IMG/VR virus record: IMGVR_UViG_3300012988_000019
Span: 1-54,102 of that record
Strand: one strand, 5' to 3'
Length of the DNA stretch: 54,102 nt
From: a virus
Taxonomy: Duplodnaviria > Caudoviricetes
The notes beneath the pieces were generated by a model. The model did no database searches and had not been told where the DNA came from. It saw nothing but the letters and a program-made list of their open reading frames with translations. Below, in pieces: positions 2,356 to 46,973 of the stretch (the first letter of the stretch is position 1; every line of letters starts with the position of its first letter). The position numbers and the translations under genes were made by a program.

Positions 2356-3900
2356 CTACGCTTCGGTGCCCGAGCTTTCGTTCGGACGGTCCTTGTTGTT
2401 GCTCGAGTTCTGATCCTCGAGCGTGTTCCCGTCGGTCGACGTCTCGTCGTCCTCGGAAGTCTCTTCGTCGTCGCCCTGGTCCTCCTGCTGGTTCTTGGAG
2501 ACCGCGTTGCGAGCGAGGTCCTCGTCGATCTGGTCCTGGATGTTGCGGGGGAACTCGTACCCCAGCTTCTCCATCTCGTCGCGGTAGTACTTCGTCGAGA
2601 TGACCCGTCGGTCGAGCATGTTGTTGAGCTCCTCGACCTTGGCCTTGCGGTCAGTCGGGAGCTTGTCACCGATGGTCGGAACGACCTCGCCCTCGAGCGC
2701 CTCGTGCTCGAAGACCTCGTGCCAAACCATCCAGTCGTAGAAGAGCTGCTTGAGCCGAGCGATACCGGCCTGGTCTCGCTGCTCGACCTTGGCGAGCGTT
2801 GGCATGAACTTGATCGCCAGCGCGATACCGGACTGAGCCACCTGAGCATCGACCTTGCCGAGGGCCACGTCGCTCAGCGAGGCGCCCTCCATCATCTTCC
2901 GCTCGATGTAGCTGATCTGGTCCGTGGCAGGGGTGATCGACGTGACCCCCTCGACGCGGCGGAAGTAGGAGCCCTGAGGCACCTCCATGACTCGACCCGG
3001 GGCGACCTCCCAGTCGACCTCCGCGCCGGAGTCGTTCACCGGACGGCCACCGTCCGTGGCGTAGACACCCAGGCCCTCAAGCGAGAGCGAAGCCGAGACG
3101 TCAGTCGCGCTCTGCGAGACCGTCTGGAGCAGCGACTCGAAGCCGCGCAGCTCGGAAGAACCGAAGTCCTCCCCGTCCCAGGCCCGGTTACGGAACCAGT
3201 AGACGGGGATGGTGTCGATGCGCTGGTCCAGGTAGCCCTTGGCGAGGATGGTGCGCACCAGCTTGGGCTGCTCGCCGTACCACTTCGGCTCGAGCTCGTA
3301 GATGCCCTGCTGGCGGCTCACCCGGCGGTTGCCGAGCTCATCCTCCTCGAGCTCATACGTCAGCTTGTTGACGTAGCTCTTGTTGTCGTTCGGGTCGTTG
3401 TAGACCGTGACGAGGTGGCACTTGAGCATCTTGTCCGGCGTGTGCATGTCCCACACCGGGAAGACCGACCCGGGGTCGACCGAGTTCAGCGAGAGGCGTC
3501 GCCCCTCCCTCTTCTTGGGGTTACCGGTGAGGTGGAAGACGAAGTCTCCCTTGGCGACACCGGCATGCTTGGCGGTGTGGAACCTCGAGTAGAAGGCCTC
3601 CCGGTCCAGAAAGGCCTGCAGCGTCTTCTTGGTAGCAGCCGATCCACCATCAACCACCAGCTCCAGACCCTTGAGGATGTAGTAGGCAGTCGTGTCGACG
3701 ATCACTCGAGCGTTCGGGATGTACAGCGGCTGCTCACCCTCGAGCACTCGCAGCGAGAACTGGCGCGGCTCGTTCTGGTAGAGCTCGTTGTACTTCTCGT
3801 AGGCCGCGATGCGGTCCTGCTCGTCCTGGGGGATCCAGACTGGTCGAGCAACACCGAGGAATCGGCGTACGCTGGACCACTGGTTCGGGTCGTCGCTCAT
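2356..3900 (-). CDS. Portal protein
   Basis: 514 aa directly downstream of terminase; AQSGIALAIKFMP motif resembles SPP1-like portals. Confidence 0.85.
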   Translation of the reverse strand: MSDDPNQWSSVRRFLGVARPVWIPQDEQDRIAAYEKYNELYQNEPRQFSLRVLEGEQPLYIPNARVIVDTTAYYILKGLELVVDGGSAATKKTLQAFLDREAFYSRFHTAKHAGVAKGDFVFHLTGNPKKREGRRLSLNSVDPGSVFPVWDMHTPDKMLKCHLVTVYNDPNDNKSYVNKLTYELEEDELGNRRVSRQQGIYELEPKWYGEQPKLVRTILAKGYLDQRIDTIPVYWFRNRAWDGEDFGSSELRGFESLLQTVSQSATDVSASLSLEGLGVYATDGGRPVNDSGAEVDWEVAPGRVMEVPQGSYFRRVEGVTSITPATDQISYIERKMMEGASLSDVALGKVDAQVAQSGIALAIKFMPTLAKVEQRDQAGIARLKQLFYDWMVWHEVFEHEALEGEVVPTIGDKLPTDRKAKVEELNNMLDRRVISTKYYRDEMEKLGYEFPRNIQDQIDEDLARNAVSKNQQEDQGDDEETSEDDETSTDGNTLEDQNSSNNKDRPNESSGTEA

Positions 3901-5297
3901 GCTGCCCTCCTCGACTTCCTAACGGAGCTCTGTCGGCTCTGGCGCTTGGCCGTATCGAACTGTTCCATGTGTCCCTTGAAGAACCGCCCCAGGGCCTCAG
4001 GACCGTGGTTGTCCTTGTCCAGCGGCATCTCACTGTCGTTGCGCATGTCGCTGTGAGACTCGGGCCAACGGTAGCCCTCTCGCATCTCCCAGATCAGCTT
4101 GGTGCAGCGTCGGTCGACCTGCAGACCGGGCTTCTTGTCGGGGTGGTCATCGGGCAGCCGCTCCGGACGAAGCTTCAGCGCCGAGCGGATCAGCCGAAGT
4201 CGAACCTTCAGCTCACCACCCGTGTTGGTCTTGACCGGCACTCCGAGGTGACGGCGGAGGATCGCCGAGTCATCCGGCGCGGCCGGGTCGGCGTAGATCG
4301 CGACGAGCTTCTGGGTCAGCGGGTGATCCTTCAGTTCGTTGCGAGCGATGTCCTCAGTGTCGCGCATCCGGAAGCGGTGCTCCCCGATCACGTAGACGAA
4401 CTTCTCCCAGGGGTCGACCTGGATCCAGAGCCAGACCCAGTCGTTCGTGTAGCCGTAGTCGACCGCGGCGTAGAGGGGCCAGTCCGGGTTGTACCGGATA
4501 TCGGCAACGTGATCCTCGTCGTCCCACTCCTTCATGACGCGGCCCTGGCGCTGGATGAACTCGCCACCGTACTGCCGACGGAACTCATCCTCGGTCAGGT
4601 CGTCCTCAGCCTCGAGGATCTCGGGGTCGTTGCGCCCTCCGGGGAAGACGATGGTGTTCGTCCAGCTCGGCATGCGCCAGGATCGCCACTGCGTCTTGGT
4701 CGGGTCCTGACCACGGTTGTATGCCCAGTAGAGCAGCGAGTTCTCGCTGGCGTCCTCAGGCACCCCAGACATCAGGCTCATGCCTCGCTTGTCGGAGAGC
4801 GCGGGTCGGACGTAGTCACCGAACATGCGGCGACGGTGTCGACCGGCCTCGACCAGCAGCACGAAGTCCAGACCCTCACCGACCAGGCTCTCGGGGTGAC
4901 GCGCAGAGCGGCACTCGATGTCGAAACCCCAGCGGGTGCGGATGTGCATGTTGCCGTTCTCGACGTTGTTCAGGAACTTGGAACTGACAGTGTCAATCCC
5001 CAGCTTCTTGAACGTGTCGTAGATGATCCGGAACTCCTTCTCGCAGTCGGAGTACTCCGGACCAATGATCCATCCGCGCATGGGCTCACCGCGCCAGTTG
5101 CGGACGAATGCCAGGCACTCCGACTCCTTACCACCGAGCATCGTCTTGCCCCAGCGTCGGCCGTTGCAGAGAACTCGGTGGCGAGTGTTGTCGTAGTGGA
5201 TGATCTGCTGGCCCCGGTGTGGACGGTACTCCGTCTTGTCGAAGTAGACGTCCTTCCGGAAAACCAGGCCCTCTTCACTGGGCAGCTCTAGCGGCAT
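3897..5297 (-). CDS. Terminase large subunit
   Basis: Walker A GRRWGKT, GEGLDFVLLVEA Walker B region, nuclease AVDYG and DKDNHGPEALGR. Confidence 0.95.
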   Translation of the reverse strand: MPLELPSEEGLVFRKDVYFDKTEYRPHRGQQIIHYDNTRHRVLCNGRRWGKTMLGGKESECLAFVRNWRGEPMRGWIIGPEYSDCEKEFRIIYDTFKKLGIDTVSSKFLNNVENGNMHIRTRWGFDIECRSARHPESLVGEGLDFVLLVEAGRHRRRMFGDYVRPALSDKRGMSLMSGVPEDASENSLLYWAYNRGQDPTKTQWRSWRMPSWTNTIVFPGGRNDPEILEAEDDLTEDEFRRQYGGEFIQRQGRVMKEWDDEDHVADIRYNPDWPLYAAVDYGYTNDWVWLWIQVDPWEKFVYVIGEHRFRMRDTEDIARNELKDHPLTQKLVAIYADPAAPDDSAILRRHLGVPVKTNTGGELKVRLRLIRSALKLRPERLPDDHPDKKPGLQVDRRCTKLIWEMREGYRWPESHSDMRNDSEMPLDKDNHGPEALGRFFKGHMEQFDTAKRQSRQSSVRKSRRAA

Positions 5298-7305: not shown

Positions 7306-7506
7306 GGCTTTCCTCCTTGAGCTTGCCTCTATGAGGCAACGAGTCTGGATTGTGTGCACTCTATCAAGGCATCTGTTCATCGCGCAAGGGGACGCATCGG
7401 ACACCGTTCCCCAGCGGGCCCGAAGTTCATTCCTGTCAGCGAGTCATCCCACACCAATCGAGGCCGATCTCCGAAGAGACCGACCCCGAGAGGTAGTGCG
7501 TGATCG

Positions 7507-8646
7507 TCAGATCGTGTGGCGGCGGCGGTAGGCGACCGCCCCGACCGTGCCGGCACCGGCGGCGAGCAGCGCACCGGCGGTCCCGAGGGCGCCGAGGTCG
7601 GACCCGGTGTGGGCGAGCTCGGTGTCGTCGTTGGCCGGCGCGGCGACCTTGGCCGGGGTGACCGGCGCGGTGACCGTGACCGGGGCGGTGACGGAGATCG
7701 GCGTCGTGATCACCGGGTTGTCGACCGGCGTCGTCGGCTCCTCGACCGGGGTCTCGGGGTCGGTCGGGTCCTCGGGGTCGACGGGCGTCTCACCCGGCTC
7801 CTCCTCGCAGACCGTCGGGGCGATGTACTCCTGTCCGGGGTCGATCATCTCCGTGATGCCCTCGCCGGACCGCTCGTTCCCCGTCGGCTCGTAGCTGGCG
7901 TCGGGGGCCTTCCAGCCGGCGTCGCGCCAGACCAGCTCGGTCGAGTCCTCGGTGCCCGGGATGTAGTCCGGGTTCGGGATGGTCGGACCGGTGTAGTCCG
8001 GGTTGGGGATCGTCTCGTCGCCCTCGGCGTCGTGGTTGACGGTCTCGGTCCAGGCCTCGCGGATGGTGACCGTCTCGTCCCAGGCCTCCTTGATCAGGGC
8101 ACCCGGGCGGGTCTGGCCGGTCTGGGTGTAGCGGTACTCCGTGGAGACCTTGCGCTTCTTGCCGTCGGTCGACTGCACCGCCGAGTGCGGGCCGGCCTCG
8201 GTGAAGTTGGCGTCGGCCCACTTGGTCGAGTTGCCCGACCAGTTCTCCCAGCCGAAGGTCTCGCCGGTGTTGACCCAGCCCAGCCACCCGGTCTGCTGCT
8301 GGATGATGCCGCGGACCTGCTTGATGTACAGGTACTCGGTGGCGTACTCGGCGTCGTGGTGGATGACCGTGGTCTCCGCCGGGTGGTTGATCGTCTCGGT
8401 CCAGGCCGGCTTGTAGTCGGGGTTCGGGATCGTCGGCGAGACCGGGTTCGGCAGCGTCTCCTCGCCCTGGGCGGGGGTGCCGGCGATGGTGTGGAGGTAC
8501 TCGTACTGCACCGCGTAGGTCGGCGCGATGTACTCCTGGCCCGGGTCGGGCACGCACTCGGTGGCCGAGGCGATGGGGGCGAAGATCAGGCCGAGGGCGA
8601 TGGCGCCCGGGGCGGCGAGGGTGTAGAGGAAGCGCGACTTGCGCAT
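7507..8646 (-). CDS. Secreted sortase-anchored (LAxTG) cell-wall protein
   Basis: Signal peptide (ASA/TE), Pro/Thr-rich linker, LAHTG, hydrophobic helix, RRRH tail. Confidence 0.85.
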   Translation of the reverse strand: MRKSRFLYTLAAPGAIALGLIFAPIASATECVPDPGQEYIAPTYAVQYEYLHTIAGTPAQGEETLPNPVSPTIPNPDYKPAWTETINHPAETTVIHHDAEYATEYLYIKQVRGIIQQQTGWLGWVNTGETFGWENWSGNSTKWADANFTEAGPHSAVQSTDGKKRKVSTEYRYTQTGQTRPGALIKEAWDETVTIREAWTETVNHDAEGDETIPNPDYTGPTIPNPDYIPGTEDSTELVWRDAGWKAPDASYEPTGNERSGEGITEMIDPGQEYIAPTVCEEEPGETPVDPEDPTDPETPVEEPTTPVDNPVITTPISVTAPVTVTAPVTPAKVAAPANDDTELAHTGSDLGALGTAGALLAAGAGTVGAVAYRRRHTI

Positions 8647-8658
8647 GAGAGGCTCCTG

Positions 8659-8901
8659 TCAGGCCCGCTGAAGCGAGGCCGTACGGCTGATGTAGATCGG
8701 GAAGTCGTACTCCTCGACTCGAACCTCGATGGACTGTCGAGAGTTCGTGGGGGTCGCGGAGATCAGTGTCAGGGGCTCAGGCTCACCCTTGACGTTGTGG
8801 AGGAAGCGCGTCCCCTGCGCTCCGACCAGGTTAGTTGCCGGGAAGAACTTCTCCTTAGACCAGTCATTGGTCCCCGGCAGCTCGAATCGTCGTGCGGTCA
8901 T
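8659..8901 (-). CDS. Hypothetical protein (leaderless)
   Basis: 80 aa; promoter -10 ends 7 nt upstream of the ATG. Confidence 0.65.
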   Translation of the reverse strand: MTARRFELPGTNDWSKEKFFPATNLVGAQGTRFLHNVKGEPEPLTLISATPTNSRQSIEVRVEEYDFPIYISRTASLQRA

Positions 8902-8908
8902 AGCAGTA

Positions 8909-8937
8909 ATACTAGGCTACTGCGTACCGGATGTCAA
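8909..8937 (-). promoter_or_regulatory. SigA-type promoter TTGACA-17-TAGTAT
   Basis: Consensus boxes with 17 bp spacer. Confidence 0.8.
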
Positions 8938-9432
8938 CGACGAATCGAGTGCCGGAGCGGGAACTTCATCCGGTTCCACACCCGGTTGGTGAGCCGCATC
9001 GCGACCCAGAGCGGAACCACCTTCTTCACCCACTTCCTCTCCTCGCTGAGGAGGTAGTAGGTCTTGCCGGCGTCGTTCGAACGCCTCGCCGCGGCGGCGG
9101 TTCTGCCAGATCATGTCGCCGACCCCGATCCAGTCCGCCGGGTCGGTCGTCAGCGGGTTGAGGTTCTCGAAGTTCAGCAGCCGCTGCAGGGTCTGCAGGC
9201 TGTACGAGGCCGACATGCCCGAGTGCCCCTGCTGGCTGAAGCGGATCACCAGGTCCATGATGTCGTACGCCATCTGGCGGTTCATCTTGTCCGAGCCGGG
9301 GTAGCCCATGCCGCTCAGCTCACGCATGGCGTGCAGCACGAGGTTGCTCTCGAAGCTGGCGTCGTAGTCGGAGTCCCGCCACTGCGGGAACTCAGCGCGG
9401 CGATCACGCAGGGGCTTGTCGCTGGTGATCAT
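8934..9432 (-). pseudogene. Phage protein (FSQQGHSGMSA motif) with apparent frameshift near 9078
   Basis: After ...WQNRRRGEAF the adjacent frame reads NDAGKTYYLL... to TGA at 8934. Confidence 0.6.
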
Positions 9433-9689
9433 CAGTCCTCCAGGTTGGCGCAGTGCTCGTCCCACTCGGGAACGCGCATCACGGCGTTGTAGTCACGGGT
9501 GGTGGTCGCGAAGGCGATGTCGTCGATGCACACCCGGGTGATGTTCGGGTGCTGGTCGACGTTGCCGTAGATCGTGATCTCGTCCGGCTCCTCGAACGGG
9601 ACGTTCTCGACGTCGTACTGCTGCGCGCAGCCCGCGGTCAGGGTGACCAGAGCCGCTGCTGCCAGCACGGCAGCGAGCCTCTTCTTCAT
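9432..9689 (-). CDS. Lipoprotein
   Basis: MKKR, hydrophobic stretch, lipobox LTAG-C. Confidence 0.75.
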   Translation of the reverse strand: MKKRLAAVLAAAALVTLTAGCAQQYDVENVPFEEPDEITIYGNVDQHPNITRVCIDDIAFATTTRDYNAVMRVPEWDEHCANLED

Positions 9690-9961
9690 CAGTTCTTCTT
9701 CTCCTCGGTGAGTCGTGCCATCTCGGTGTGGAAGCGCTCGACCAGCTCGTCGATCACGGCCGAGTCGATTGCGATGGGCTCCAGCGCCTCCCTGAGCGCT
9801 CTCTCAGCGTCCGCCCGCTCGATCAGGTCAGGCGAGGGCGCGATGCGTTCGAGGAACGCCCTGCGGACCGGGGCCGGCAGGTTGTACCAGCTGACGTCGC
9901 CCTGGCGCCGCTCGGTCTCGTACAGCTTCTGCGCCTTGGGCGTACGGGGGTCGTTCGGCAT
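9689..9961 (-). CDS. Hypothetical protein
   Basis: 90 aa; coupled start/stop. Confidence 0.65.
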   Translation of the reverse strand: MPNDPRTPKAQKLYETERRQGDVSWYNLPAPVRRAFLERIAPSPDLIERADAERALREALEPIAIDSAVIDELVERFHTEMARLTEEKKN

Positions 9962-9964
9962 CTG

Positions 9965-10351
9965 TCAGACCTCCTCGTCGAAGCCCAGCTCGATGAGCGC
10001 GGCCTTGAGCCCAGCGAGAGTACGGTGGCCCTCAGGCATCGGCAGGGTGTCGTCGACCTGGTGCCAGGCGCGGCGGAAGGCGTCGGCAGCTCGCGGCAGG
10101 TCATCCGCCTTGAACGCGCAGGGCCGGTCGAGGTACTGACCGAGCAGTGCGTGCAGCTTCACCGCCTCCTGGGCGCTGAGCGCGACGATGAGGCCCTTCT
10201 CCGTCACCCCGCTCTCCAGGAGGTTGACCTCGAGCCCCACACCGGGGCGGGTCTTGAGGGCGGTGAGGATGACCTCTCCCGTCTCGTTGGGGTCGGCCCC
10301 CAGGTTGTTCACCCGGGGCTTGCTGAGTGGTATGCGGCCGAGGTGCGTCAT
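9965..10351 (-). CDS. Hypothetical protein (leaderless)
   Basis: 128 aa; TTGACA-17-TAAGTT (10358-10386) ends 6 nt upstream. Confidence 0.7.
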   Translation of the reverse strand: MTHLGRIPLSKPRVNNLGADPNETGEVILTALKTRPGVGLEVNLLESGVTEKGLIVALSAQEAVKLHALLGQYLDRPCAFKADDLPRAADAFRRAWHQVDDTLPMPEGHRTLAGLKAALIELGFDEEV

Positions 10352-10389
10352 GGGACAAACTTACTCTCTCCATGGTTCCCTGTCAAGGG

Positions 10390-10645
10390 TGCATCGTCAG
10401 CTTGATACAGTCCCACCCCCGATGCTCCGCAGGGGGAGTGAAGCATCGAGGGTGGGATCGTAAGCTGATGGCTGACTCGGCATACCATCCTCATCGGATC
10501 ATCTCCGGACCCTTGAGTCAGTTACCCCTCTCTCATTCTCTGCTGCCTGAGAGGACCATCGTGGGGGCTCCTTGTGCGTAGGAGCTATGACCGGGTATTA
10601 TACGATGTCCGGTGTTTGTATAAGCCTCGCCTCGCGGCGATGCAT
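10390..10645 (-). ncRNA. Candidate structured ncRNA (~255 nt)
   Basis: Own promoter TTGACA-17-CAGTAT (10651-10679); terminal stem plus at least 6 internal helices; no substantial minus-strand ORF. Confidence 0.55.
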
Positions 10646-10689
10646 GAGAAATACTGCCATGCGGGGAGCTGGATGTCAAGGCCGGAGCT

Positions 10690-11067
10690 TCAGCTGCTCT
10701 GTCGGGCCCTGCGTCGCCTCGGCTTGGTCACCGTGCGGTTCTCCCTGCGGCTGTTGCGGCGCGCCTGGCGTTCGGCGTCGCGGCGAGCGTAGATGGTGAG
10801 GTTGCGCTCGACGTCGGACTCCCGAAGGTCGCCGATGAAGAGTCGTGAGCGCCCCTGCAGTTCACGACCCGTCTCGACGTCCTTCTTGCGCCCGTAGATG
10901 CCATCGGGCAGGAAGTACCCGTGCTTGCTGACGTGAGATGGCGTCAGGAGCAACCGGATGTCGCTCTTGACGGAGATGGGCTGGCCCTTCACGTAGATGA
11001 CGACCTCGACGTCACCATACTGCTCTTGGGCCTCAGCCAGGCGTTCTGCCAGCTGTGAGATACGCAT
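10690..11067 (-). CDS. Hypothetical protein
   Basis: MRISQLAERLAEAQEQYGDVEV...; promoter TTGACA-17-TAGATT at 11157-11185. Confidence 0.7.
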   Translation of the reverse strand: MRISQLAERLAEAQEQYGDVEVVIYVKGQPISVKSDIRLLLTPSHVSKHGYFLPDGIYGRKKDVETGRELQGRSRLFIGDLRESDVERNLTIYARRDAERQARRNSRRENRTVTKPRRRRARQSS

Positions 11068-11181
11068 GAGATACACCACTTCCGGATGAGAGATGTTGCC
11101 TTGCGGGTAGCACCAAATCTCCTCTCTCGAGCAGACAGTGGATCCTGAGCAAGGCAAATCTACTGCATCCGGTGTGGGATG

Positions 11182-11388
11182 TCAAGGCCGGGGCTTCTGC
11201 TTACCCCCGGCGTGCTCGATGATGAACATGTCGAGCAGGTCTCGGTACATGTAGAAGGTGTCCCGCACGTCCGTGAGGCTGTCCGGCCTCGAGCGCGGGT
11301 CACTCACCTTGTCGTAGCGGTGGAACAGGTGGTCGAATCCGTGCATGTTCGTGAACAGCAGCATGCCCTTGGATCGCAGCTCATCCAC
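11182..11388 (-). CDS. Hypothetical protein
   Basis: 68 aa; coupled to neighbours. Confidence 0.6.
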   Translation of the reverse strand: MDELRSKGMLLFTNMHGFDHLFHRYDKVSDPRSRPDSLTDVRDTFYMYRDLLDMFIIEHAGGKQKPRP

Positions 11389-11914
11389 TGAAGTCCTCCA
11401 GCCTGGTGGTGCGCTCTAGCAGGAACCAGAAGCCGTGCCCCTCGACGAACCCCATCTGCACGACCCGGTAGCGATCTTGGAACCAGCTCTCCAGCTGACT
11501 CTCGGCCTGGTGGGTGGGCACTCCGCAGATGAACGCTTGCTGCGTGGGCGGGTCGATCTTGGGCTCGGGTGCCGGCTCCATGACCTTCGGCGAGGGCCAG
11601 GGGTCCGGGTGATGCACCTTCGCCTCGGGTCTCAGCGTGCAGCGAGCCACCTTGTTACCGAGCTGGACCTTCTGCATACAGAACATGTTGGATCGCCCCG
11701 GATTGAAGGGGTGGTACTCACCGGCCGGAACAGCCTCCTCGTCGGGCTCCTCAGAGTGAACCAGGCTCATCGAGTGGACCAGGTGGTTGCCATGGCGACC
11801 GCACGGTCGACTGATCGCCTCCTCACCCAGCGTCCAGACCGGCTGAATACAGTGTCCGCCCGGCTTGTCCGTGATATACGGGTGGACCTCGTTGAACGGA
11901 ATGATGCTAGCCAT
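11381..11914 (-). CDS. Hypothetical protein with two H..C..C..H repeats
   Basis: AAGGAGG RBS; HPY..C..C..H and HPF..C..C..H units. Confidence 0.65.
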   Translation of the reverse strand: MASIIPFNEVHPYITDKPGGHCIQPVWTLGEEAISRPCGRHGNHLVHSMSLVHSEEPDEEAVPAGEYHPFNPGRSNMFCMQKVQLGNKVARCTLRPEAKVHHPDPWPSPKVMEPAPEPKIDPPTQQAFICGVPTHQAESQLESWFQDRYRVVQMGFVEGHGFWFLLERTTRLEDFSG

Positions 11915-11924
11915 GCGTCCTCCT

Positions 11925-12059
11925 TCAGTAGGTGCCAGCGGCAAGCGAAGCGAGGAGGAGCAGGCCGCCCATCCACACCATGAGGTAGTCCTCGTGCTTC
12001 AGGCCGAAGCCGATGGCGAGGCAGCCGAGCACGATCAGCAGCAGGATGAACAGGATCAC
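11925..12059 (-). CDS. Small 2-TM membrane protein
   Basis: GTG start; VILFILLLIVLGCLAIGFG...MGGLLLLASLAAG (44 aa). Confidence 0.6.
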   Translation of the reverse strand: MILFILLLIVLGCLAIGFGLKHEDYLMVWMGGLLLLASLAAGTY

Positions 12060-12532
12060 TGCTCCATCACCTGCTTGTGCAGCTCGTCGAGGAACTCCTT
12101 GTGATACTGCAGCGACCAGATGCGCTTGGCCACGTCCCGCTCCAGCCGGCCGACCGCGTCGTACCGGAAGGATCGCTGCCTGGTGCTGAAGGGCTGCAGC
12201 TCCCACTGGTGGATGATGTCCCGCAGCGGCTCGTAGTACCACCACCAGGTGAAGAACGGACCGAACGAGGTGTTCGTCTTGTACAGGAAGTTGTGCTCCG
12301 TGAGGCGCTCGATCAGCCCCAACAGCGCGCCCTGGGTGTGGATGTACGTCTCCTGCTCCTCGTGGAGCGCGCGGTCCTGGACCAGACCGCCGGCGGGGCG
12401 CATGTAGCCGGCCCACTGGGTGTACCGGACGGTGACGGGCGGCGTGTAGTCCGGCTGGCGGCGGTGAGCGGCAGCGGCACCGAAACGGAAGCCGAAGGTC
12501 AGCTCGCGGGGGTCGGGCAGGTGCTTTGTCAT
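12056..12532 (-). CDS. Hypothetical protein
   Basis: MTKHLPDPRE...; start overlaps the upstream stop. Confidence 0.65.
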   Translation of the reverse strand: MTKHLPDPRELTFGFRFGAAAAHRRQPDYTPPVTVRYTQWAGYMRPAGGLVQDRALHEEQETYIHTQGALLGLIERLTEHNFLYKTNTSFGPFFTWWWYYEPLRDIIHQWELQPFSTRQRSFRYDAVGRLERDVAKRIWSLQYHKEFLDELHKQVMEQ

Positions 12533-12885
12533 CGCTGGGCCTCCGCCATCAGTCGGTCGATCTCCGCGGCGATCAGGGCGCCGGCACGGGCGAGCTCGTG
12601 GATGCGGTCCTCCGGCGTCGGCTTCCAGGCGTACGGCGACCACGGCCAGAGGATGGGCAGCGATCCGAGGGAGGGCATGACCTTCCGGATGCGGTCGGGC
12701 ATGGCGTAGCAGAACGCGGCCAGCGACATCTCGTCGTTCTTGTTGGTCTCGAGGTCGTTCTGCAGTGTGTAGCCCTCGCCGCCCTCGATCTTCGGGGCGC
12801 GCATCCGGATGTACTCGTCCAGGATGACTCGGGGGCCGTTCTTCGGCAGGGGCTGGGGGGACTCGGCGTCGGGTGTGGTCGTCAT
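12529..12885 (-). CDS. Conserved phage protein (WPW..WKP..ELARAGALIAAEIDRL), leaderless
   Basis: Recognisable motif; TTGACA-17-TAGCAT (12892-12920) ends 6 nt upstream. Confidence 0.75.
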   Translation of the reverse strand: MTTTPDAESPQPLPKNGPRVILDEYIRMRAPKIEGGEGYTLQNDLETNKNDEMSLAAFCYAMPDRIRKVMPSLGSLPILWPWSPYAWKPTPEDRIHELARAGALIAAEIDRLMAEAQR

Positions 12886-13149
12886 GTGATCATGCTATGG
12901 CATGCTGGGCTGGATGTCAACCTTCTTGTGCCCGGACGACTCGGAGTGGAAACGGGAATACGTGGTAGGGACTTTCCCCCGAGAGACACAGCAGCAGGCG
13001 CGAACTACCATCCGTTTCTTCCCCCCTCTCCATTGTCTATTTTTTCTCCGGGGGGGTTCATTCTCTTGGAGATTAAACACAATGGAGAACAAACACATTC
13101 CGAGGAGGATCATTCCTTGATGGAAAGCAAACCGAAGAGGAATGCAAGG

Positions 13150-13520
13150 GATCATCATCACAGGAAAGATAACAACAGATCATGCCCTCATGGATGCGAT
13201 CATATCGATCCGGCATATCATCATCGCCTCATCACTCAATGACATCATGCTGGAATGATCAGGATATGATCAGAGATCAAGGATAGGCATGCGCGCGCAT
13301 CATCATCGCCTCATCATGCGATCATGCAGGAAGCAACAGCACAGGCATATATGCCCCCCTATATACCCCCCTATATACACCCCCCTATATAGGGCTCTAT
13401 ATATGACCCCTTATATACACCCCCTTATATGCCCCTGTATATACGGGTGTATATGTACAGCCCTATACGAGGCCCCTCTTATGGGCACACCAATATACCC
13501 CCTTCTAAGAGGGGGCATTA
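13150..13520. repeat. Low-complexity non-coding repeats (GATCAT/ATCATC block, then CCCCCTATATA block)
   Basis: ATCATCATCGCCTCATCA occurs twice; several degenerate CCCC(C)TATATA units at 13348-13470; AT-enriched. Confidence 0.75.
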
Positions 13521-13530
13521 TGGCGGGGTG

Positions 13531-13689
13531 TTATCGCTGGGACGGGGCAATCACCCGGGCGATTCCCTCGATGGTCCAGATGAAGAGCATCCCCATGGCG
13601 AGAAGGGCGAGGGCCCCGGCCACCCACCCATAGCAGATGACCAGGATGGCGATGATGGCGGAGCAGAGGAGGAAAGTCGCGATTCCCAT
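13531..13689 (-). CDS. Small membrane protein
   Basis: 52 aa hydrophobic ORF MGIATFLLCSAIIAILV..., translated manually. Confidence 0.6.
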   Translation of the reverse strand: MGIATFLLCSAIIAILVICYGWVAGALALLAMGMLFIWTIEGIARVIAPSQR

Positions 13690-13702
13690 GGTGTGGACCC
13701 CT

Positions 13703-13849
13703 TCAGCGGATGGTCTTGCGGCGGCGGGTGGTGCGGCGGCGACCCGACTTGGTGGTCGGTCGGGGGGAGACCTCGATCGGGGCGAAGGTCATGGATCGGA
13801 GCTCGGCCTGGCGGCGGTCGGAGGCGAGGGTGATCGGCGAGTTCGTCAT
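13703..13849 (-). CDS. Small basic protein (leaderless)
   Basis: MTNSPITLASDRR...RRRKTIR (48 aa); TTGACG-17-TAAGAT (13856-13884). Confidence 0.55.
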   Translation of the reverse strand: MTNSPITLASDRRQAELRSMTFAPIEVSPRPTTKSGRRRTTRRRKTIR

Positions 13850-13891
13850 ACCTGTATCTTACCCCCTCAGCTCCGGATCGTCAAGGCGAGG

Positions 13892-14254
13892 TCACCAGTA
13901 GAGGACCTCCTGGTCGGCGGTCACCGTGAAGGACTGCCCCTGGCCGTTGCCCTGGACTCGGGCGTCCCAGTAGCAGGGTCCCTCGGCGTCCTCGGTCTGG
14001 CAGGGCGCCATGCCGGCGGTGACCCCGGCGAGGTTGCTGTAGTCGAAGGTGATCGAGGTCCCCCCGTCCATGCGGTGAGTGGTGAAGTTCTCGTCGACCC
14101 AGAAGTCGGAGTCGATCTCGGCGGCGTGCTGGTCGGCGGTCCAGTAGCAGTTCTGGAGGACGGTCGCGCGGGAGTCGCACTCGGGGAGGTCCTGAGGCGT
14201 CGAGGGCGCGAAGAGGGAGGCGATGAGGGCGGCGAAGGCGAGGATCGTGGTCAT
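13892..14254 (-). CDS. Secreted Cys-containing protein (leaderless)
   Basis: Signal-like N-terminus; PC..ED..PCYWDA..GNGQG; TTGACA-19-TAGAAT (14261-14291). Confidence 0.7.
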   Translation of the reverse strand: MTTILAFAALIASLFAPSTPQDLPECDSRATVLQNCYWTADQHAAEIDSDFWVDENFTTHRMDGGTSITFDYSNLAGVTAGMAPCQTEDAEGPCYWDARVQGNGQGQSFTVTADQEVLYW

Positions 14255-14383
14255 GCCCTTATTCTACCACCCTCCACACCCAGCTTGTCAAGGCCGGAGC
14301 CGCGAGCGCCGCGATTCTTGCCTAGGACGAGCAAGTATGGACTCGACACCAGAGAACCCCTCCGGAGGGGGGTCCTGTGGCGG

Positions 14384-14695
14384 TCAGTCGTTCATGTGCG
14401 ACTCGAACTCCTCGTCGGTGAGGTCGATCTCGGTCCCGCAGCGCATGCACTCCCAGTAGAGCGCCTCGCGCGTCGGCATCTCCTCGAGAACCATGGACCC
14501 GGTGCGGCGGTCCTTCATGTCGCGGTCGCCGTGCTCGCAGGTGGCGGGGTCCTCGTCGCCCTCCGCCCAGTCCGACTCCTCGTACTCGGGGATGTCGCCC
14601 TCCCAGTCCATCTCCCCGTAGGAGGGGGAGTCCCAACCGAGGACCTCGCCGTCCTCGTTGCGGATGATGGACGAGTTGGCGGTGGGGAACATCAT
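14384..14695 (-). CDS. Acidic Zn-ribbon-like protein
   Basis: GAGGAG RBS; CEH...CMRC. Confidence 0.65.
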   Translation of the reverse strand: MMFPTANSSIIRNEDGEVLGWDSPSYGEMDWEGDIPEYEESDWAEGDEDPATCEHGDRDMKDRRTGSMVLEEMPTREALYWECMRCGTEIDLTDEEFESHMND

Positions 14696-14756
14696 GGTCA
14701 CTCCTCGGGTTCATGCCCCCGGCGGGGGCGATGGGTATACTCTACCACATCCCGGA

Positions 14757-15029
14757 TCAGAGTCCATAGGTCTGGGTCTGCGTCTTCGGGGTCGGCACCG
14801 ATGCCCGGAACGCGTAGGTCGCCTGCTCGATGAGTCGGGCGGTCTGGGCGAGGTCCATCTCGAAGTCGACCACCTGTCCGGTGGTGGTGGTCATGGCGAC
14901 CCGGACTCGAGGCAGGTCCGCGGCCCCCTGGAAGATCGCCCTGCTCGCCTCGATCTTGTCAAGGTCCAGGTGGACCCGCTCCTCGGGCGGGGGCCAGGTC
15001 ATGGTGACCTTGCGCTTGCGCCGGAACAT
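14757..15029 (-). CDS. Hypothetical protein
   Basis: MFRRKRK...; coupled to the upstream gene. Confidence 0.6.
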   Translation of the reverse strand: MFRRKRKVTMTWPPPEERVHLDLDKIEASRAIFQGAADLPRVRVAMTTTTGQVVDFEMDLAQTARLIEQATYAFRASVPTPKTQTQTYGL

Positions 15030-15238
15030 CAGACGTCCTCCCCCTGGAGCGCAGCGATGATCCCGGCGACCACCCCGTTCCGGATGGCGATGCACTGCTC
15101 GGGCGTGGAGTGCGGCGGGAAGATGATGTTCTCATCGACCTCGAGCGCGACGATCTCCATGATCTCCTCGAGGTTGTCCTCGATCGCCTGGGCGATCTGC
15201 GCATCGGTGGGCGGCATGGGCGTCGGGTTCGTCGTCAT
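15029..15238 (-). CDS. Hypothetical protein (leaderless)
   Basis: TTGACA-17-TAGAAT (15245-15273) ends 6 nt upstream. Confidence 0.7.
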   Translation of the reverse strand: MTTNPTPMPPTDAQIAQAIEDNLEEIMEIVALEVDENIIFPPHSTPEQCIAIRNGVVAGIIAALQGEDV

Positions 15239-15476
15239 ACCTAAATTCTACCACCTCCACACCCGGATGTCAAGCGAGCGCCGAAGTCGCGTACGCTCCT
15301 GTGAGGCGGCGGAGTTCGGGGCAGATAGCTAGCTATCTCCCAGGTGCCCGAGGGCCTCAGATCGCTCCTCAGGCGGTACTTGCCTAGGACGAGCAAGAGT
15401 CCACATGGTGGGCAGCGCCTTGACAAACGCCGAACCAGCCCCCTCCTTGCGGAGGGAGCGGTCGGTGTGGTAGGGA

Positions 15477-15824
15477 TCAGTCCTCGAGGTCCTCGTCCTC
15501 GAGCGCGAGGTCGTCGTCGGTGGGGCCCTCGAGCGAGTCGAAGTCGGGGGCCTCGTCGGTCGCCTCGGGGGTGACCTCCTCGACCTCCTGCGCGGCCTCC
15601 TCGGCGCGCTTCGCCTTGGCCTCCTCCTGCGCGGCCTCGAAGGTGCGGAAGGCCCTCGTGAGGCGCGTCAGCTCGGTCTTGGTGCCCTTGATCGCCCAGC
15701 GCTTGCCCTTCCCGGGCTGCTCGTCGCGCGGGGTGATCGAGCGGAGGAACTTGCGCGCGGTGCGGGGGTCGGTGCCCAGCTCGGCGGCGAGGTCGGCGGG
15801 GGAGAGGATCGAAGCAGCGGCCAT
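15477..15824 (-). CDS. HTH DNA-binding protein with acidic tail
   Basis: LSPADLAAELGTDPRTARKFLRS...GKGKRW; promoter TTGAGT-17-CATGAT (15881-15909). Confidence 0.75.
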   Translation of the reverse strand: MAAASILSPADLAAELGTDPRTARKFLRSITPRDEQPGKGKRWAIKGTKTELTRLTRAFRTFEAAQEEAKAKRAEEAAQEVEEVTPEATDEAPDFDSLEGPTDDDLALEDEDLED

Positions 15825-16113
15825 TTGAATCACTCCAGTTGATCAGTCGAGGGGGTCGGTCCCCCCCTTGCGATGAGATAATCATGCCACACCCACTGGG
15901 GTGACTCAAGGCGAGAACGGTAGTTCTTGCTGTGACCTACCTCACTCTCTCACCCCCTTGACGGGAGCACTCCCATGCTCTAGAATCGCGCGCCCGCGCA
16001 CGCTTGTACGCGCCAAGTATCGACGAGACTCTTCGGTTACTGAAGCAAGAGTCCCCTAAAGATGCTACCCCAACCGCCTTGGGTCGCCCCTCGACTCGTG
16101 GTAGAGTATGGGC

Positions 16114-16341
16114 ATGATCAACAACGACATGACCCCCGCCAACGCGATCATCGCGCCCCTCTCGCTCCTGCAGGAGATCACCCCGCCGGCCGCGGGTGCG
16201 CTCATCATCCTGATCAACGCGCTCGACCCGAGCGACGCCGACCGCGACTCCATCGACCAGGCGCTCGTGCGCTTCGAGGGTTCGCACCCGAAGCAGGTCG
16301 CCACCATCCGCCACGAGCTCTTCCGCAAGTTCCGCCACTGA
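16114..16341 (+). CDS. Hypothetical protein (leaderless)
   Basis: Strong GC3 bias; extended -10 TGG-TAGAGT ends 6 nt upstream. Confidence 0.65.
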   Translation: MINNDMTPANAIIAPLSLLQEITPPAAGALIILINALDPSDADRDSIDQALVRFEGSHPKQVATIRHELFRKFRH

Positions 16342-16544
16342 CCCCCCACGAGGGCCCCTACGGGGGCTCTCAGGGCGGAGCGGACCCGCCAGATAGCTAG
16401 CATACTGCCTACCCCCTCAACGGGCTGCAGGAGCGATCCTGACCCCCTCAGCGACTGATGTAGGGCACAAGACCCCCCTAGTCAGGTGGTACTTGCTTCA
16501 GACAAGCAAGCGAATACGTGCTGATGTCACACAAGTGTATAAAC

Positions 16545-16577
16545 AATGCCATTCCCCGGATTCCCGGGGTGGCATTC
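16545..16577 (-). terminator. Hairpin terminator
   Basis: AATGCCA..CCCGG / CCGGGGTGGCATT stem just after the 16586 stop. Confidence 0.5.
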
Positions 16578-16585
16578 TTCAGTAG

Positions 16586-16762
16586 TTATCGGTGGATTGC
16601 TCCGCACTTGTTGCAGAGGTATTCCCCATTCCAGTTGGAATCCGCGGTCGGTTCGCATTCCTTCCCGTCAATGGAAGGGGAGAATCCCATGTATTCGGCG
16701 TCATTGCCGCAGGGGCATTCGAGATCGGAATCGGGGTCAGTGATGGGAATGATGGTAGGCAT
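16586..16762 (-). CDS. Small Zn-finger protein (CPC...CNKC)
   Basis: 58 aa MPTIIPITDPDSDLECPCGND..., translated manually; AAGGGGA RBS. Confidence 0.65.
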   Translation of the reverse strand: MPTIIPITDPDSDLECPCGNDAEYMGFSPSIDGKECEPTADSNWNGEYLCNKCGAIHR

Positions 16763-16775
16763 TGTTTGATTCCCC

Positions 16776-17069
16776 TTAGTTGATCGGCGGGAAGTTATCC
16801 CCGAATGCGTGAATGTAACGTCGGATCAAATCCCAGGTGGTTTCCGACTCGAAAGCATTCAGGAATGCCTCCTCTTCGGCGTCCGAACTGATGAAGGGAT
16901 TGAAGAGATCATTCTCCGCGCATTCCTGCTCGAGAATGCTGAAGAACTGACCGTCGGGGGCATTGTATGCGGCGCGGAATGCCTCGGGGTCGCGCATTGC
17001 TTCCCCAATAACATCGGCAATAACAATGCCAGCGATTACCGGGGGCGTGAGGGGGATGCGATTGATCAT
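16776..17069 (-). CDS. Hypothetical protein (leaderless, lower GC)
   Basis: TTGCTC-17-TATAAT (17076-17104) ends 6 nt upstream. Confidence 0.7.
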   Translation of the reverse strand: MINRIPLTPPVIAGIVIADVIGEAMRDPEAFRAAYNAPDGQFFSILEQECAENDLFNPFISSDAEEEAFLNAFESETTWDLIRRYIHAFGDNFPPIN

Positions 17070-17288
17070 GCCTCAATTATACTCCCCCTACCCCCCTCGA
17101 GCAAGGTGGGTCAAGGTGACTTGGGTCACACTCTTGCTTCAGAGACCGAAGCGCGAGGTTCGCTCCTGCGGGGGCGTACCCCTCAGCAGATAGCTAGCTA
17201 TCCTCGTGCCCCTGCTACCCCCTCAGATCGCTGAGTCGATATGTGCTGATGTAACACAAGAGTGTGACCGACGTCACTTCCCGTGCTA

Positions 17289-17317
17289 TTGACTAACGGT
17301 GTATCCTGTGGTATATT
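17289..17317 (+). promoter_or_regulatory. SigA-type promoter TTGACT-17-TATATT
   Basis: Consensus with extended -10 TG; followed by hairpins rather than a credible gene. Confidence 0.7.
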
Positions 17318-17544
17318 TGTATTGCCACAAAGCGGGCAACAATGAGAGAAAGGGTAGTTGTGTGGGACAACTGTGCATTCCTCGGATTCACATTGTTTGC
17401 ATTGTTTAAATCCATTCTTGTGAGGAATGGGAACAATGTGAAAAAGAATGCCAGCGACCCCCAGCCAGAAAATTTTGAACTTTGTTTTCGCCTCGTATTA
17501 TGGGGCTAGAAAATTCGGCTCTTTGTTCTCCTGAGAATTCAGGG

Positions 17545-17772
17545 CTAGAATCCGTCCTTTCCTCGCTTCATGGTCCTGTTGACCGAAGCTTCCAGAACCA
17601 GTCGCTTCCAGTACTCCTCGAACCGGTCCATCATGGCGCCGATCTCGTACTCGTCCAGGGTCCGGCCGTACTTCTGCTCCTGCGCCTGAGCGTAGCCTCG
17701 GCAGTAACCCTCCCGCGCCTGCTCCTTGGTCCGTCCGACGAGTGCTTCCTGCTCTTCTAGTGGCATGTCCAT
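17545..17772 (-). CDS. Hypothetical protein (leaderless)
   Basis: TTGACT-17-TAGCAT (17779-17807). Confidence 0.7.
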   Translation of the reverse strand: MDMPLEEQEALVGRTKEQAREGYCRGYAQAQEQKYGRTLDEYEIGAMMDRFEEYWKRLVLEASVNRTMKRGKDGF

Positions 17773-18254
17773 GGCACTATGCTACCAGTTCCGTGGTGTG
17801 GAGTCAACTTCCGCACTCTTTCCACACCAGGCCGGCCTCGCTTCGCTGGGATCGGTCTTCCGGAACGGAACGTGGCCGTCGATGCTAGCATCGAGCGAGT
17901 CGGACAGAGTGTTCCGTGGCCATTTGGAGCCGGAATCTTCCCGTCCAAACTCGTGTAGTCCTCCTTCCAACGGGGCCAAACCCCCAGTGCTCCTGTCAAC
18001 GGAGCCTACCCCCCGGTCAAAACCCGGACCGGATCGATCCGAGTGGGAACAAACCGCCAGTCTCTCGGAGCCCACGGTAATTCCTACTGGAATATCCTCG
18101 ATACTCTGTCCTCATTCTTCAACCCCGAACGTGGTAGCTGGATCACCAGACCTTCATTCCGGATGCACCATCATACCACCTAGCGATTCACCCGGACACC
18201 AAACCGGCGACCAGACCCTCACCATCAGAGTCCAATCACCGGCCGGCGCCCGGA

Positions 18255-18464
18255 TCAACTATTCAAGTGGCTGATCAGCTTCTCCCTAGCTTTCTTCAGC
18301 TCACCGATGGTGGTGCCCTCAGACCCCACGTGAAGACTCCAGATGCCTCCATGGATTACCGTGTTATAGTCCCCACCAGGCAGCCAGGTATCATCAGAAA
18401 GCTCCCGCCCTTCGCCTTCAGCCACCCGGTTGAGAATCTGCTCCCGGTCCTCATCGCGAAGCAT
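18255..18464 (-). CDS. Hypothetical protein
   Basis: 69 aa; GAGGAG RBS. Confidence 0.55.
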   Translation of the reverse strand: MLRDEDREQILNRVAEGEGRELSDDTWLPGGDYNTVIHGGIWSLHVGSEGTTIGELKKAREKLISHLNS

Positions 18465-18759
18465 AGTACTCCTCGAGTCTCAGCTCCAGCAGGTCGTACG
18501 TCTGCTCGGTCAGCCCGCCAGTACCAGCGATAAGCCGATGTATCACCCCATTGGCATCCTGGTAGAAGTGAGAGACAGGCCCATCACTCCGGAACATCAT
18601 CTCCCACTTCCGGGCCGTCTCGAGCTTCCCTCCCCGCCGACCCTTACCCCCAAGATCGATGTACCGGCTCTCTACCGGGTCGAGCTTACGCCCCCAGTCG
18701 GGATCGGAGAGCAGTGCCTCCTCCATCCAGTCGGCCGCCTCATCTTCGTACCCCTTCAT
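18451..18759 (-). CDS. Hypothetical protein
   Basis: 102 aa; coupled. Confidence 0.55.
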   Translation of the reverse strand: MKGYEDEAADWMEEALLSDPDWGRKLDPVESRYIDLGGKGRRGGKLETARKWEMMFRSDGPVSHFYQDANGVIHRLIAGTGGLTEQTYDLLELRLEEYYASR

Positions 18760-18890
18760 CCCGAGATACCCGGCTGCGCGTCCCGATACATCATCGGATC
18801 AGCACCCTCGGCCTCACGCTCATCGCGACCATCGACGAGCATCTCCTCGCGATCCTGACCATCTTCCTCAGGTCCCAGCTCACTCATCAT
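18756..18890 (-). CDS. Small acidic protein
   Basis: 44 aa ORF filling the gap with overlapping start/stop. Confidence 0.4.
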   Translation of the reverse strand: MMSELGPEEDGQDREEMLVDGRDEREAEGADPMMYRDAQPGISG

Positions 18891-19476
18891 GCCCAACCTT
18901 TCCTCCGTCAAACGGGCAGAACTTCCAGCCCTCTCGCATCATTCGACCACATCCAGTGCAGCGAGTACCCGAACCCAGATGCCCCTCCCGTTCCGGTTCA
19001 CCGCGACGACGGCGTGCCATCTCGTCGAGCTCGAACTGAATCTCACGGGCAATACCACGAAGCCGCTTGTCAATGAGGTCCTTGAGCTCCAGCGCTTCCT
19101 CATCAGCGATGACCCAGTACTTCTTGTATGACTTCCGCTTGGCCCCACCCCCCGAGATCTGTATCTTGCCTGGGACGTTCCGCGTCGGAGCCTTGCCAAG
19201 TCGACCTGTCTCTGCTTGAGCTGCACCACGCGCACCTGCGCCTCCATCATCCTTGCCAGCCAGCCCCTTGTGCCAGAGCTGCTCGTACGCATCCAGGAAG
19301 CCCTGCGGCAGGAAGAAGAAGACCTCCTTGGCGATCTGGTTATATCCCACACCAGCCGAGGCCATCAGGTCCGCAAACATCGCCTTCGCCTGTCGAGCAG
19401 CGAGAGCGTGAACCAGTGCAGCACCCTGATCCTGCCTCTCTCTTGCTCCCCCGCCTCGTTCGATCGCGTTCTTCAC
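18880..19476 (-). CDS. Protein with C-terminal zinc ribbon
   Basis: CTGC...WKFCPFDG. Confidence 0.7.
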   Translation of the reverse strand: MKNAIERGGGARERQDQGAALVHALAARQAKAMFADLMASAGVGYNQIAKEVFFFLPQGFLDAYEQLWHKGLAGKDDGGAGARGAAQAETGRLGKAPTRNVPGKIQISGGGAKRKSYKKYWVIADEEALELKDLIDKRLRGIAREIQFELDEMARRRRGEPEREGHLGSGTRCTGCGRMMREGWKFCPFDGGKVGHDE

Positions 19477-19563
19477 TATCTACCGACCCTTCCGATGTGG
19501 CTTGTGTGGTGTGTGGTGCGGAGCTGAGCGCAGCGAAGCGACGCGCTCCGTGCCATGCATGCG

Positions 19564-19860
19564 CTACCGCGAGGCAAGGGTGCTAGCCTTCCGCCGGATG
19601 ATCGCGTACTCTGCTTTCCGCTGCCTCGACAGCCCGGGCCAGAGTCGCTTCATCAGCTCGTGCAGACGGTCGCCCTGTACCTGCACCTTGATCCCACCTC
19701 GATGACCCTTGTGCACGTTCAGACCTGCGAGGTCAGCGAATCGCTGGATCGCCTCGATCCGGAAGGTGCTCTTCAGCACGTAACAGGAAGCCCCTTGGCG
19801 TACGAAGAAGGTACCCATCCCATCCATCATGCCTGCCATCCAGGCTTCGTCAACATCCAT
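19564..19860 (-). CDS. Degenerate single-motif LAGLIDADG-like protein (leaderless)
   Basis: AWMAGMMDGMGTF; TTGACA-17-TAGGAT (19867-19895). Confidence 0.6.
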   Translation of the reverse strand: MDVDEAWMAGMMDGMGTFFVRQGASCYVLKSTFRIEAIQRFADLAGLNVHKGHRGGIKVQVQGDRLHELMKRLWPGLSRQRKAEYAIIRRKASTLASR

Positions 19861-27761: not shown

Positions 27762-27768
27762 CACCAGT

Positions 27769-27800
27769 CGGCCCCCGCCTCGAGATGAGGATCGGGGGCC
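27769..27800. terminator. Hairpin between convergent operons
   Basis: GGCCCCCG...CGGGGGCC. Confidence 0.6.
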
Positions 27801-27813
27801 TTCTGGCGTGTGT

Positions 27814-28561: not shown

Positions 28562-28661
28562 GATCTTCTCCTAAGTATGTAAGGGCAATCCGCCCTATCC
28601 GATGCACTGATACTATCGGATTGATAGCTGGCAATCAAGGATCTTTCTGACACAGGACAAA

Positions 28662-28686
28662 GCCCCTCTCCGGTGTGGAAAGGGGC
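28662..28686 (-). terminator. Hairpin downstream of SSB
   Basis: GCCCCTCTCC-GGTGT-GGAAAGGGGC. Confidence 0.55.
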
Positions 28687-28721
28687 CCTGTCTATCCTGC
28701 TAGAGGGTTGGTCCAACCCCC

Positions 28722-46913: not shown

Positions 46914-46933
46914 TGAAACCTCCAGGGGTTAAA

Positions 46934-46968: not shown

Positions 46969-46973
46969 GGTCG

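Follow-up and report, generated by a model that had tools for sequence, protein, structure and literature searches.

What is made from a stretch between two promoters that seems to hold no gene? The question is raised by the minus strand of the virus record IMGVR_UViG_3300012988_000019, analysed here over its whole length of 54,102 nt (the window, which is a complete IMG/VR viral record with an estimated completeness of 91%). Around positions 10390–10679 a promoter, P10679, reads into a slot that is followed directly by a second promoter, P10386 (Table 1). The original prediction had seen here a discrete structured RNA. The promoter-bounded non-coding slot stood up to analysis, but the multi-helix structure did not, as only one hairpin and possibly the helix joining the ends exceed chance. 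The product is probably a short early non-coding RNA that carries a terminator-like stem, and no multi-helix RNA family can be demonstrated in it. The reading favoured below, a promoter slot without a gene that has a terminator or processing hairpin at its end, is given about an even chance of being correct.

The slot, its promoter and its hairpin

The promoter first proposed for the slot, TTGACA-17-CAGTAT on the minus strand, is present (10679–10651) and is one of a family. The pattern TTGACA-N16-18-NANNNT has 15 matches (14 sites) in the window versus 1.44 expected, and none of 100 shuffles reaches 15. The family consensus, TTGACA(TCC)-17-TAGNNT, is of sigma-70 type and host type. P10679 has a perfect −35 hexamer, the 17-nt spacer, A and T at the second and sixth positions of the −10 hexamer, and the same strand as the gene array. 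Its upstream context GGCCTTGACATCC is common to the promoters at 11185 and 14291, and TTGACATCCAGC to the promoter at 12920. Of the 14 family promoters with a TANNNT −10 hexamer, eight have an ATG 6–7 nt on that opens an open reading frame (ORF) of 69–183 aa; these genes are leaderless, and P10386 itself lies 6 nt ahead of the ATG of the leaderless gene at 9965–10351. Promoters of the same type, often leaderless, occur 4–15 times per genome in each of five relatives (see below). Judged by this family resemblance, P10679 can be taken as a real promoter. Elsewhere in the window, at 42867–42950, two family promoters stand back to back and diverge, with starts at 42895 (minus strand) and 42922 (plus strand); between the former and the main gene lies a 23-codon leaderless GTG ORF. 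The 5′ untranslated regions (UTRs) that start from the promoters at 42922 and 26204 share the opening CATCGC(C)TCACCC, and the candidate RNA has a similar CATCGCC at its start.

The slot between the promoters is non-coding. In the 338-nt gap from 10352 to 10689, GC is 0.52–0.62 at all codon positions in every frame on both strands, versus ~0.6–0.75, 0.4 and 0.74–0.98 at the three positions in this phage's genes, and in sliding windows codon periodicity is lost exactly at 10352–10689. A pseudogene was rejected because periodicity is absent from every frame. The claim that the minus strand has only ORFs of 8–15 aa proved inexact, since it also holds ORFs of 48 aa (10348–10494), 28 aa (10397–10483) and 48 aa (10533–10679, with a TTG start), none of them coding-like. 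The predicted start of P10679 coincides with the ATG of a 15-codon ORF, which had been overlooked; this ATG is 5 nt from the −10 hexamer, versus 6–7 nt for the real genes of family promoters. The 48-aa ORF at 10351–10494 had three hits among 1.84 billion representatives (E 2e-4 to 8e-4), and the two that were inspected (P0005 and P0006) are repetitive junk predictions. An 84-aa plus-strand ORF had no candidate homologue in the protein search. Hidden small genes were rejected on these grounds.

The eight helix pairs originally listed are all exact reverse complements and lie where the coordinates place them. Three of them (TCAGCTT/AAGCTGA, TCCCACCC/GGGTGGGA and CGATGCT/AGCATCG) are segments of a single hairpin, at 10397–10468. 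The 81 nt holding it fold at −47.3 kcal/mol (z −7.71, none of 200 shuffles as good), and it ranks second in stability among 10,806 80-nt windows of the genome. Taken alone, the hairpin is more stable as minus-strand RNA (−46.7 kcal/mol) than as plus-strand RNA (−42.3 kcal/mol), a difference of 4.4 kcal/mol, because of two G-U pairs.

A comparison with shuffles had been suggested as a check on the fold, and its outcome depends on which part is folded. The whole 255-nt minus-strand RNA comes to −108.3 kcal/mol (z −4.30, none of 200 shuffles as good), but the 177 nt of the 5′ domain (10469–10645) reach only −57.6 kcal/mol (z −1.21), a level that 32 of 200 shuffles equal or better. Thus the fold signal of the whole RNA comes almost entirely from the hairpin. 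Compared with the genome's own GC-adjusted windows, the 255-nt candidate ranks 39th of 1796 (−2.04 standard deviations), and a minus-strand window that loses most of the hairpin (10450–10704) ranks 1454th. The whole region on the plus strand folds at −109.1 kcal/mol (z −3.40, one of 200 shuffles as good), and the single-helix energies of the 5′ domain are alike on both strands. Within this domain an AAGGAG is taken up by a 6-bp stem, and one loop contains TATAAT; the hairpin with this loop is better on the plus strand (−10.2 versus −5.9 kcal/mol) and is called terminator-like by the plus-strand scan. The anatomy supported is thus a promoter and ~170 nt of ordinary sequence followed by one exceptional hairpin, with a clamp joining the ends.

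The end clamp is a 7-bp helix between the predicted 5′ end and the nucleotides just after the hairpin. If the RNA runs from 10645 to 10388, its pair probabilities are 0.55–0.96. In post hoc simulations, the first 12 nt find a perfect 7-bp match in the 12 nt that follow the hairpin with P ~0.002, and with P ~0.07 when the partner is allowed anywhere in 240 nt; the end helix exceeds chance weakly. Its 3′ arm stops 3 nt before the −35 hexamer of P10386. Four copies of the hexamer GCATCG/CGATGC are present, one at each end and one in each arm of the hairpin, and an alternative 6-bp pairing is possible between the RNA 5′ end and the 5′ arm of the hairpin. A leader-peptide attenuator was rejected because this alternative cannot rival the 28-bp stem and because the peptide stop is ~130 nt from the hairpin. 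An insertion resembling a miniature inverted-repeat transposable element was rejected as well, the 7-bp terminal inverted repeats having no flanking direct repeat by eye.

Table 1. Coordinates of the slot's features and of nearby promoters and genes in the window
Feature	Position (nt)	Strand	Details
Upstream gene, 125 aa, arginine-rich C-terminal tail	10690–11067	−	codon-position GC 0.62/0.45/0.79
Promoter P10679	10651–10679	−	TTGACATCC, 17-nt spacer, CAGTAT; TTGACA at 10679–10674, CAGTAT at 10656–10651
Possible leaderless 15-codon ORF, MHRREARLIQTPDIV	10598–10645	−	ATG 5 nt after −10 hexamer; stop TAA 10600–10598
End helix, 5′ arm UGCAUCG	10638–10644	−	7 bp with 10390–10396
5′ domain, four short hairpins	10469–10637	−	indistinguishable from shuffled sequence
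Hairpin, ~28 bp, 11-nt apical region, no U-tract	10397–10468	−	inverted repeat I6; terminator-like or processing/stabilising stem
End helix, 3′ arm CGAUGCA	10390–10396	−	directly after hairpin
Next promoter, P10386	10358–10386	−	TTGACA 10386–10381, 17-nt spacer, TAAGTT 10363–10358
Downstream leaderless gene, 128 aa, no assigned function	9965–10351	−	codon-position GC 0.75/0.42/0.89
Tad3-family gene (type I Thoeris inhibitor), 182 aa	8917–9465	−	Pfam PF25185, E 2.5e-28, 98.7 bits versus cut-off 27

Relatives, searches and known systems

The family-A DNA polymerase of this phage is 70.6% identical to that of Curtobacterium phage Shrew, ~64% to those of Microbacterium phages Triscuit and Huwbert, and 67–77% to those of five IMG/VR contigs (L002–L006). 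These resemblances point to a phage of Microbacteriaceae-type Actinobacteria. Two of the five relatives compared also have the succession of a non-coding stretch, a hairpin and a family promoter. In G005 (3717–4452), ~700 nt that contain no coding-like ORF separate a promoter at 3717 from a T-run-bearing hairpin, and a promoter at 4452 comes next; in G003 (2842–3304), a promoter at 2842 is followed by a 45-aa ORF, ~250 nt, a hairpin and a promoter at 3304. Among the 72 family promoters of the six genomes, the strongest upstream hairpin is the one at 10397–10468, and one of the 15 promoters in the window has a strong upstream hairpin.

Two relatives also have Rfam matches to the Pistol ribozyme, G005 (L010) at 36.2 bits and G002 (L017) at 38.9, versus a threshold of 34.5. 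The first is inside the promoter-driven non-coding slot of G005, where the P1 loop and a downstream stretch can form a 5-bp pseudoknot (by eye). The same slot has a T-arm-like GGTTCAAATCC motif, and ARAGORN calls no tRNA there. The second, at 11998–12045, is 250 nt upstream of two tRNA genes.

Searches for the element itself found little. The original statement that no RNA family could be assigned holds, as Rfam 15 has no match in the whole window at gathering thresholds (6S/Ms1-like RNAs, riboswitches, ribozymes, CRISPR repeats and transfer-messenger RNA included). With E up to 10, the region 10250–10800 had 11 weak hits, the best of which (mir-4433, 26.9 bits versus a threshold of 77) is a generic hairpin similarity to 10398–10467. 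An Rfam E-value search of 12800–19600 returned nothing, and ARAGORN found no tRNA or transfer-messenger RNA gene in the window. By blastn the region had no match in 50,697 phage records and just one of 15 nt (E 0.071) in the five relatives, where nhmmer --max gave a best E of 2.1 and word-7 blastn one of 0.71. A single-sequence covariance model (R1) recovered itself and a partial hairpin hit (E 0.035) in 345,690 bases, and nothing in Shrew and Triscuit. Scans for exact 19-mers in IMG/VR and exact 24-mers in JGI metagenomes were empty, and scans of IMG/VR, JGI metagenomes, GTDB genomes and the five relatives showed no locus for either flanking protein. Among public sequencing runs, no RNA run contains the stretch; one run holds it in full and may be the source sample, and a second has only a 151-nt contig (10068–10218), outside the element. 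Exact 11-mers complementary to the rest of the phage number 12 versus ~8.7 expected, the longest being promoter repeats, and antisense targets within the phage were rejected because these matches are at chance level.

Several known systems invite comparison. Intrinsic terminators end transcription at a G+C-rich stem-loop followed by a U-tract, and phage early transcripts, such as those of the T7 early region, are processed at RNase III hairpins. The element is like both in having a ~28-bp G+C-rich stem placed where a transcription block ends, right before the next promoter. The stem at 10397–10468 is long enough to be a double-strand RNase substrate, but unlike an intrinsic terminator it has no U-tract. 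In retron msr-msd RNAs, terminal inverted repeats (a1/a2) pair the ends, and a long msd hairpin lies beside a2. The paired ends, short 5′ hairpins, single long 3′ hairpin by the closing helix and own promoter are all shared with these, but the 54-kb record has no reverse transcriptase. A retron was rejected because a six-frame PF00078 search of the record gave no match at E up to 1, with control genomes matched.

The 3′ boundary of the element resembles the promoter-early stem-loop (PeSL) junctions in the hyperplastic regions of T4-like phages, described by Comeau et al. (2014, PMC4122927) as composite terminator/promoter motifs that mediate cassette shuffling, yet it is no member of that group. 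In both, a stem-loop is followed immediately by an early promoter (here the hairpin ends at 10397 and the −35 hexamer starts at 10386) within a hypervariable region of small genes. As that account presents them, however, PeSLs are repeated, sequence-conserved units, whereas here the promoter is repeated and the stem-loop unique, and their phages differ from this one in lineage and host phylum.

As a whole, the element appears to work most like the early non-coding transcripts of Cluster A mycobacteriophages, yet it is no member of these either. In phages L5, D29 and StarStuff, Dedrick et al. (2017, PMC5712189) describe abundant, stable, small non-coding early RNAs from Pleft. Here too, a host-type early promoter of an actinobacteriophage leads into a few hundred nt without a notable ORF, and the function of the Pleft RNAs is, by the same account, unknown as well. 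Unlike the element, the Pleft RNAs are reported at the genome end, are conserved within the cluster and were demonstrated by RNA-seq and Northern blot (PMC5712189). The two have no sequence similarity (blastn, among the same phage records), and the element is a singleton.

The early arm around the slot

The host phage of the element is a lytic-type actinobacterial siphovirus from soil with a multi-promoter early arm, and is kin to Shrew and Triscuit. By its published description, Triscuit is a lytic siphovirus with ~33 small ORFs of unknown function between its left terminal repeat and structural genes (PMC7302621), and the candidate region sits in the equivalent arm of the window. By tblastn, just two of the 11 ORFs at 7507–12885 are matched in at least one of the five relatives, while the terminase, portal and replication genes are conserved; the early arm is therefore hypervariable.

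The Tad3-family gene belongs to the transcription block begun by P10386, ~0.9 kb downstream of the element. Its protein also matches phrog_14697, and homologues with 39–42% identity are found in relatives G001 and G003. Tad3 binds the ThsB sensor, according to a review (PMC13728456), and on sequence resemblance this gene would mark the early arm as anti-defence territory.

No Pfam family was found for the genes neighbouring the element, and protein-atlas look-ups of both flanking proteins gave no score of at least 0.9 and no family. The 128-aa downstream protein has a sole homologue (P0002, 54% identity), on an 11-kb contig of a public assembly, and no Pfam or PHROG match. The upstream protein, whose database copy is also the 125-aa form, found only itself among 5.8 billion proteins; its tail has ~14 R/K in the last 30 residues and recalls RNA-binding arginine-rich motifs. 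The promoter at 11157–11185 is predicted to drive the upstream gene via a ~80-nt 5′ UTR. This UTR (11081–11170, minus strand) has a 9-bp long-range helix, UUGCCUUGC/GCAAGGCAA, and is somewhat more structured than the genome background (z ~−2.4, 80-nt windows).

Other parts of the window have features of their own. The 379-aa protein encoded at 7507–8646 (minus strand) has an N-terminal signal-like segment and, at its C terminus, an LAHTG motif, a hydrophobic stretch and an RRRH tail. It resembles a sortase-type cell-wall anchor, which is unusual for a phage; GC at its third codon positions is 0.98, none of the five relatives has a homologue, and a strong terminator hairpin (7431–7510) comes next. 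At 13335–13467, where minus-strand genes give way to plus-strand genes, ~8 copies of a 12–14-nt unit (TATATACCCCCC) with nested inverted repeats form an iteron- or origin-like array. The ~2 kb at 16404–18450 has one coding-like small ORF only (17545–17772) and several promoter-like and terminator-like sites; it includes the most stable hairpin of the genome (18181–18260, minus strand, −51.7 kcal/mol) and a 29-nt tandem repeat (17957–18018), and Rfam gave no match there at E up to 1.

What the slot may produce

In the favoured reading, P10679 would start a short transcript at or beside A10645 that has no coding capacity past a possible 15-codon leaderless ORF and runs ~250 nt into the hairpin. 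The hairpin would act at the RNA level, either as a terminator or as a stem for double-strand processing and 3′ stabilisation. The transcript of the upstream gene would continue through the candidate region up to this point, and transcripts from P12920, P11185 and P10679 would all end or be cut here, closing the upstream block. The hairpin would also insulate P10386, whose gene needs a 5′-terminal AUG for leaderless translation. The P10679 RNA would then be co-terminal with the 3′ UTR of the upstream gene and, with its ends clamped at the hairpin base, may be stable, as an end-clamped non-coding early transcript or a by-product. Between the stop of the upstream gene (10690) and the hairpin there is no other terminator-like structure. 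In the minus-strand early array (5.2–13.3 kb) two hairpins stand out, this one and that at 7431–7510, which follows the stop of the last gene in the next block. Other top hairpins of the genome lie just past stop codons (28651–28730, 43981–44060, 46911–46990, 27761–27840 and 7431–7510).

Several points weigh against closure by a hairpin of this kind. Of the features of an intrinsic terminator, the G+C-rich stem-loop is present and the U-tract absent: the sequence after the hairpin, CGAUGCACCC, has no U-rich tract, and the terminator scan reported nothing on the minus strand at this position. Whether such stems terminate transcription in Actinobacteria is disputed. The layout is also exceptional. 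A hairpin with z below −3 is found upstream of four of the 72 family promoters in the six genomes, and in the early arm most promoters touch or overlap the stop codon before them and have no stem. P10679 is the sole family member with C for T at the first −10 position, and may therefore be weak. Finally, the end helix hints at selection on the RNA itself, which a pure insulator would not need.

This last point leads to the idea behind the original prediction, that of a functional trans-acting orphan non-coding RNA, early, end-clamped and stable, that serves, perhaps in counter-defence, as a decoy, a sponge or a regulator. Such an RNA is considered rather unlikely. The RNA would have its own family promoter and a 7-bp helix from its 5′ end to 7 nt after the hairpin (P ~0.002 in the strict form, probabilities to 0.96). 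It would come from an early arm that is hypervariable, with a Tad3-family anti-Thoeris gene 0.9 kb downstream, and the ~700-nt promoter-driven non-coding locus of G005, in the equivalent arm, has a Pistol match just over threshold. The early non-coding RNAs described from Cluster A mycobacteriophages (PMC5712189) are a precedent. On the other hand, shuffles match the 5′ domain in structure, the fold of the plus strand is as good overall, the collections searched hold no homologue and Rfam no match, complementary 11-mers in the rest of the phage number about what chance predicts and the −10 hexamer is imperfect. An anti-defence role is conceivable because the Tad3-family gene lies so close downstream; a counter-defence RNA could, for example, serve as decoy to a host system that is RNA-sensing or RNA-guided, in parallel with the Pistol-like locus of G005. 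That the element is a singleton end-clamped early RNA of ~255 nt in an anti-defence arm, acting as an RNA-based counter-defence or host-takeover factor, is nevertheless quite unlikely, and a role as decoy or antitoxin mimic is speculation. In its reading of the sequence the original prediction was accurate; its interpretation was inflated.

The slot could also be a decayed or emptied gene cassette, in which the promoter and terminator of a former leaderless gene are left with functionless sequence between them. Like the one-gene cassettes nearby, the slot has a family promoter, an ATG where transcription would start and then the next promoter, except that its ORF stops after 15 codons. Two features depart from the family, the CAGTAT −10 hexamer and an ATG 5 nt rather than 6 nt away, and the arm is hypervariable, with its two matched ORFs of 11 (7507–12885). 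Decay would not, however, be expected to yield an end helix and an exceptional hairpin, no frame retains residual codon periodicity, and the 48-aa and 84-aa ORFs have no protein homologue beyond the three repeat-protein hits, so that this history is judged unlikely. It is very unlikely that the product is instead the 15-residue leaderless peptide, or that its translation is regulatory, with the remainder as 3′ UTR. The ATG at 10645 is where family promoters put a 5′-terminal AUG, with C at −1 and A at +1, and mini-ORFs of 3–23 codons follow other family promoters (window 42895, G001 15720 and 61547, G002 28397 and 64929); leaderless short ORFs are reported to be common in mycobacteria (PMC4633059). 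Against this, the gap from the −10 hexamer is 5 nt rather than 6–7 nt, so the start may fall inside the ATG; the peptide has no homologue or codon bias, and its stop is too distant from the hairpin (~130 nt) for classical attenuation coupling. A function at the DNA level, with the 72-bp imperfect palindrome as a protein-binding, recombination or replication site, is highly improbable. Few inverted repeats in the genome match palindrome I6 in length, either strand of it folds well, and stem-loop/promoter motifs are described as mediators of cassette shuffling in T4-like phages (PMC4122927). But the stem has no second copy elsewhere in the genome, its two G-U pairs stabilise the transcribed strand, and there is a separate iteron-like repeat array at 13335–13464.

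For fold statistics in general, the locus is a caution that a good z-score for a whole region can stem from one terminator-like hairpin. For this phage group, it documents the organisation of an early arm in which strong host-type promoters and leaderless genes are joined now and then by a slot that has no gene and ends in a very strong hairpin. Should the RNA prove real and functional, the early, anti-defence arm of an actinophage would gain an RNA product, which would join the abundant early non-coding RNAs of mycobacteriophages, which are themselves still unexplained.

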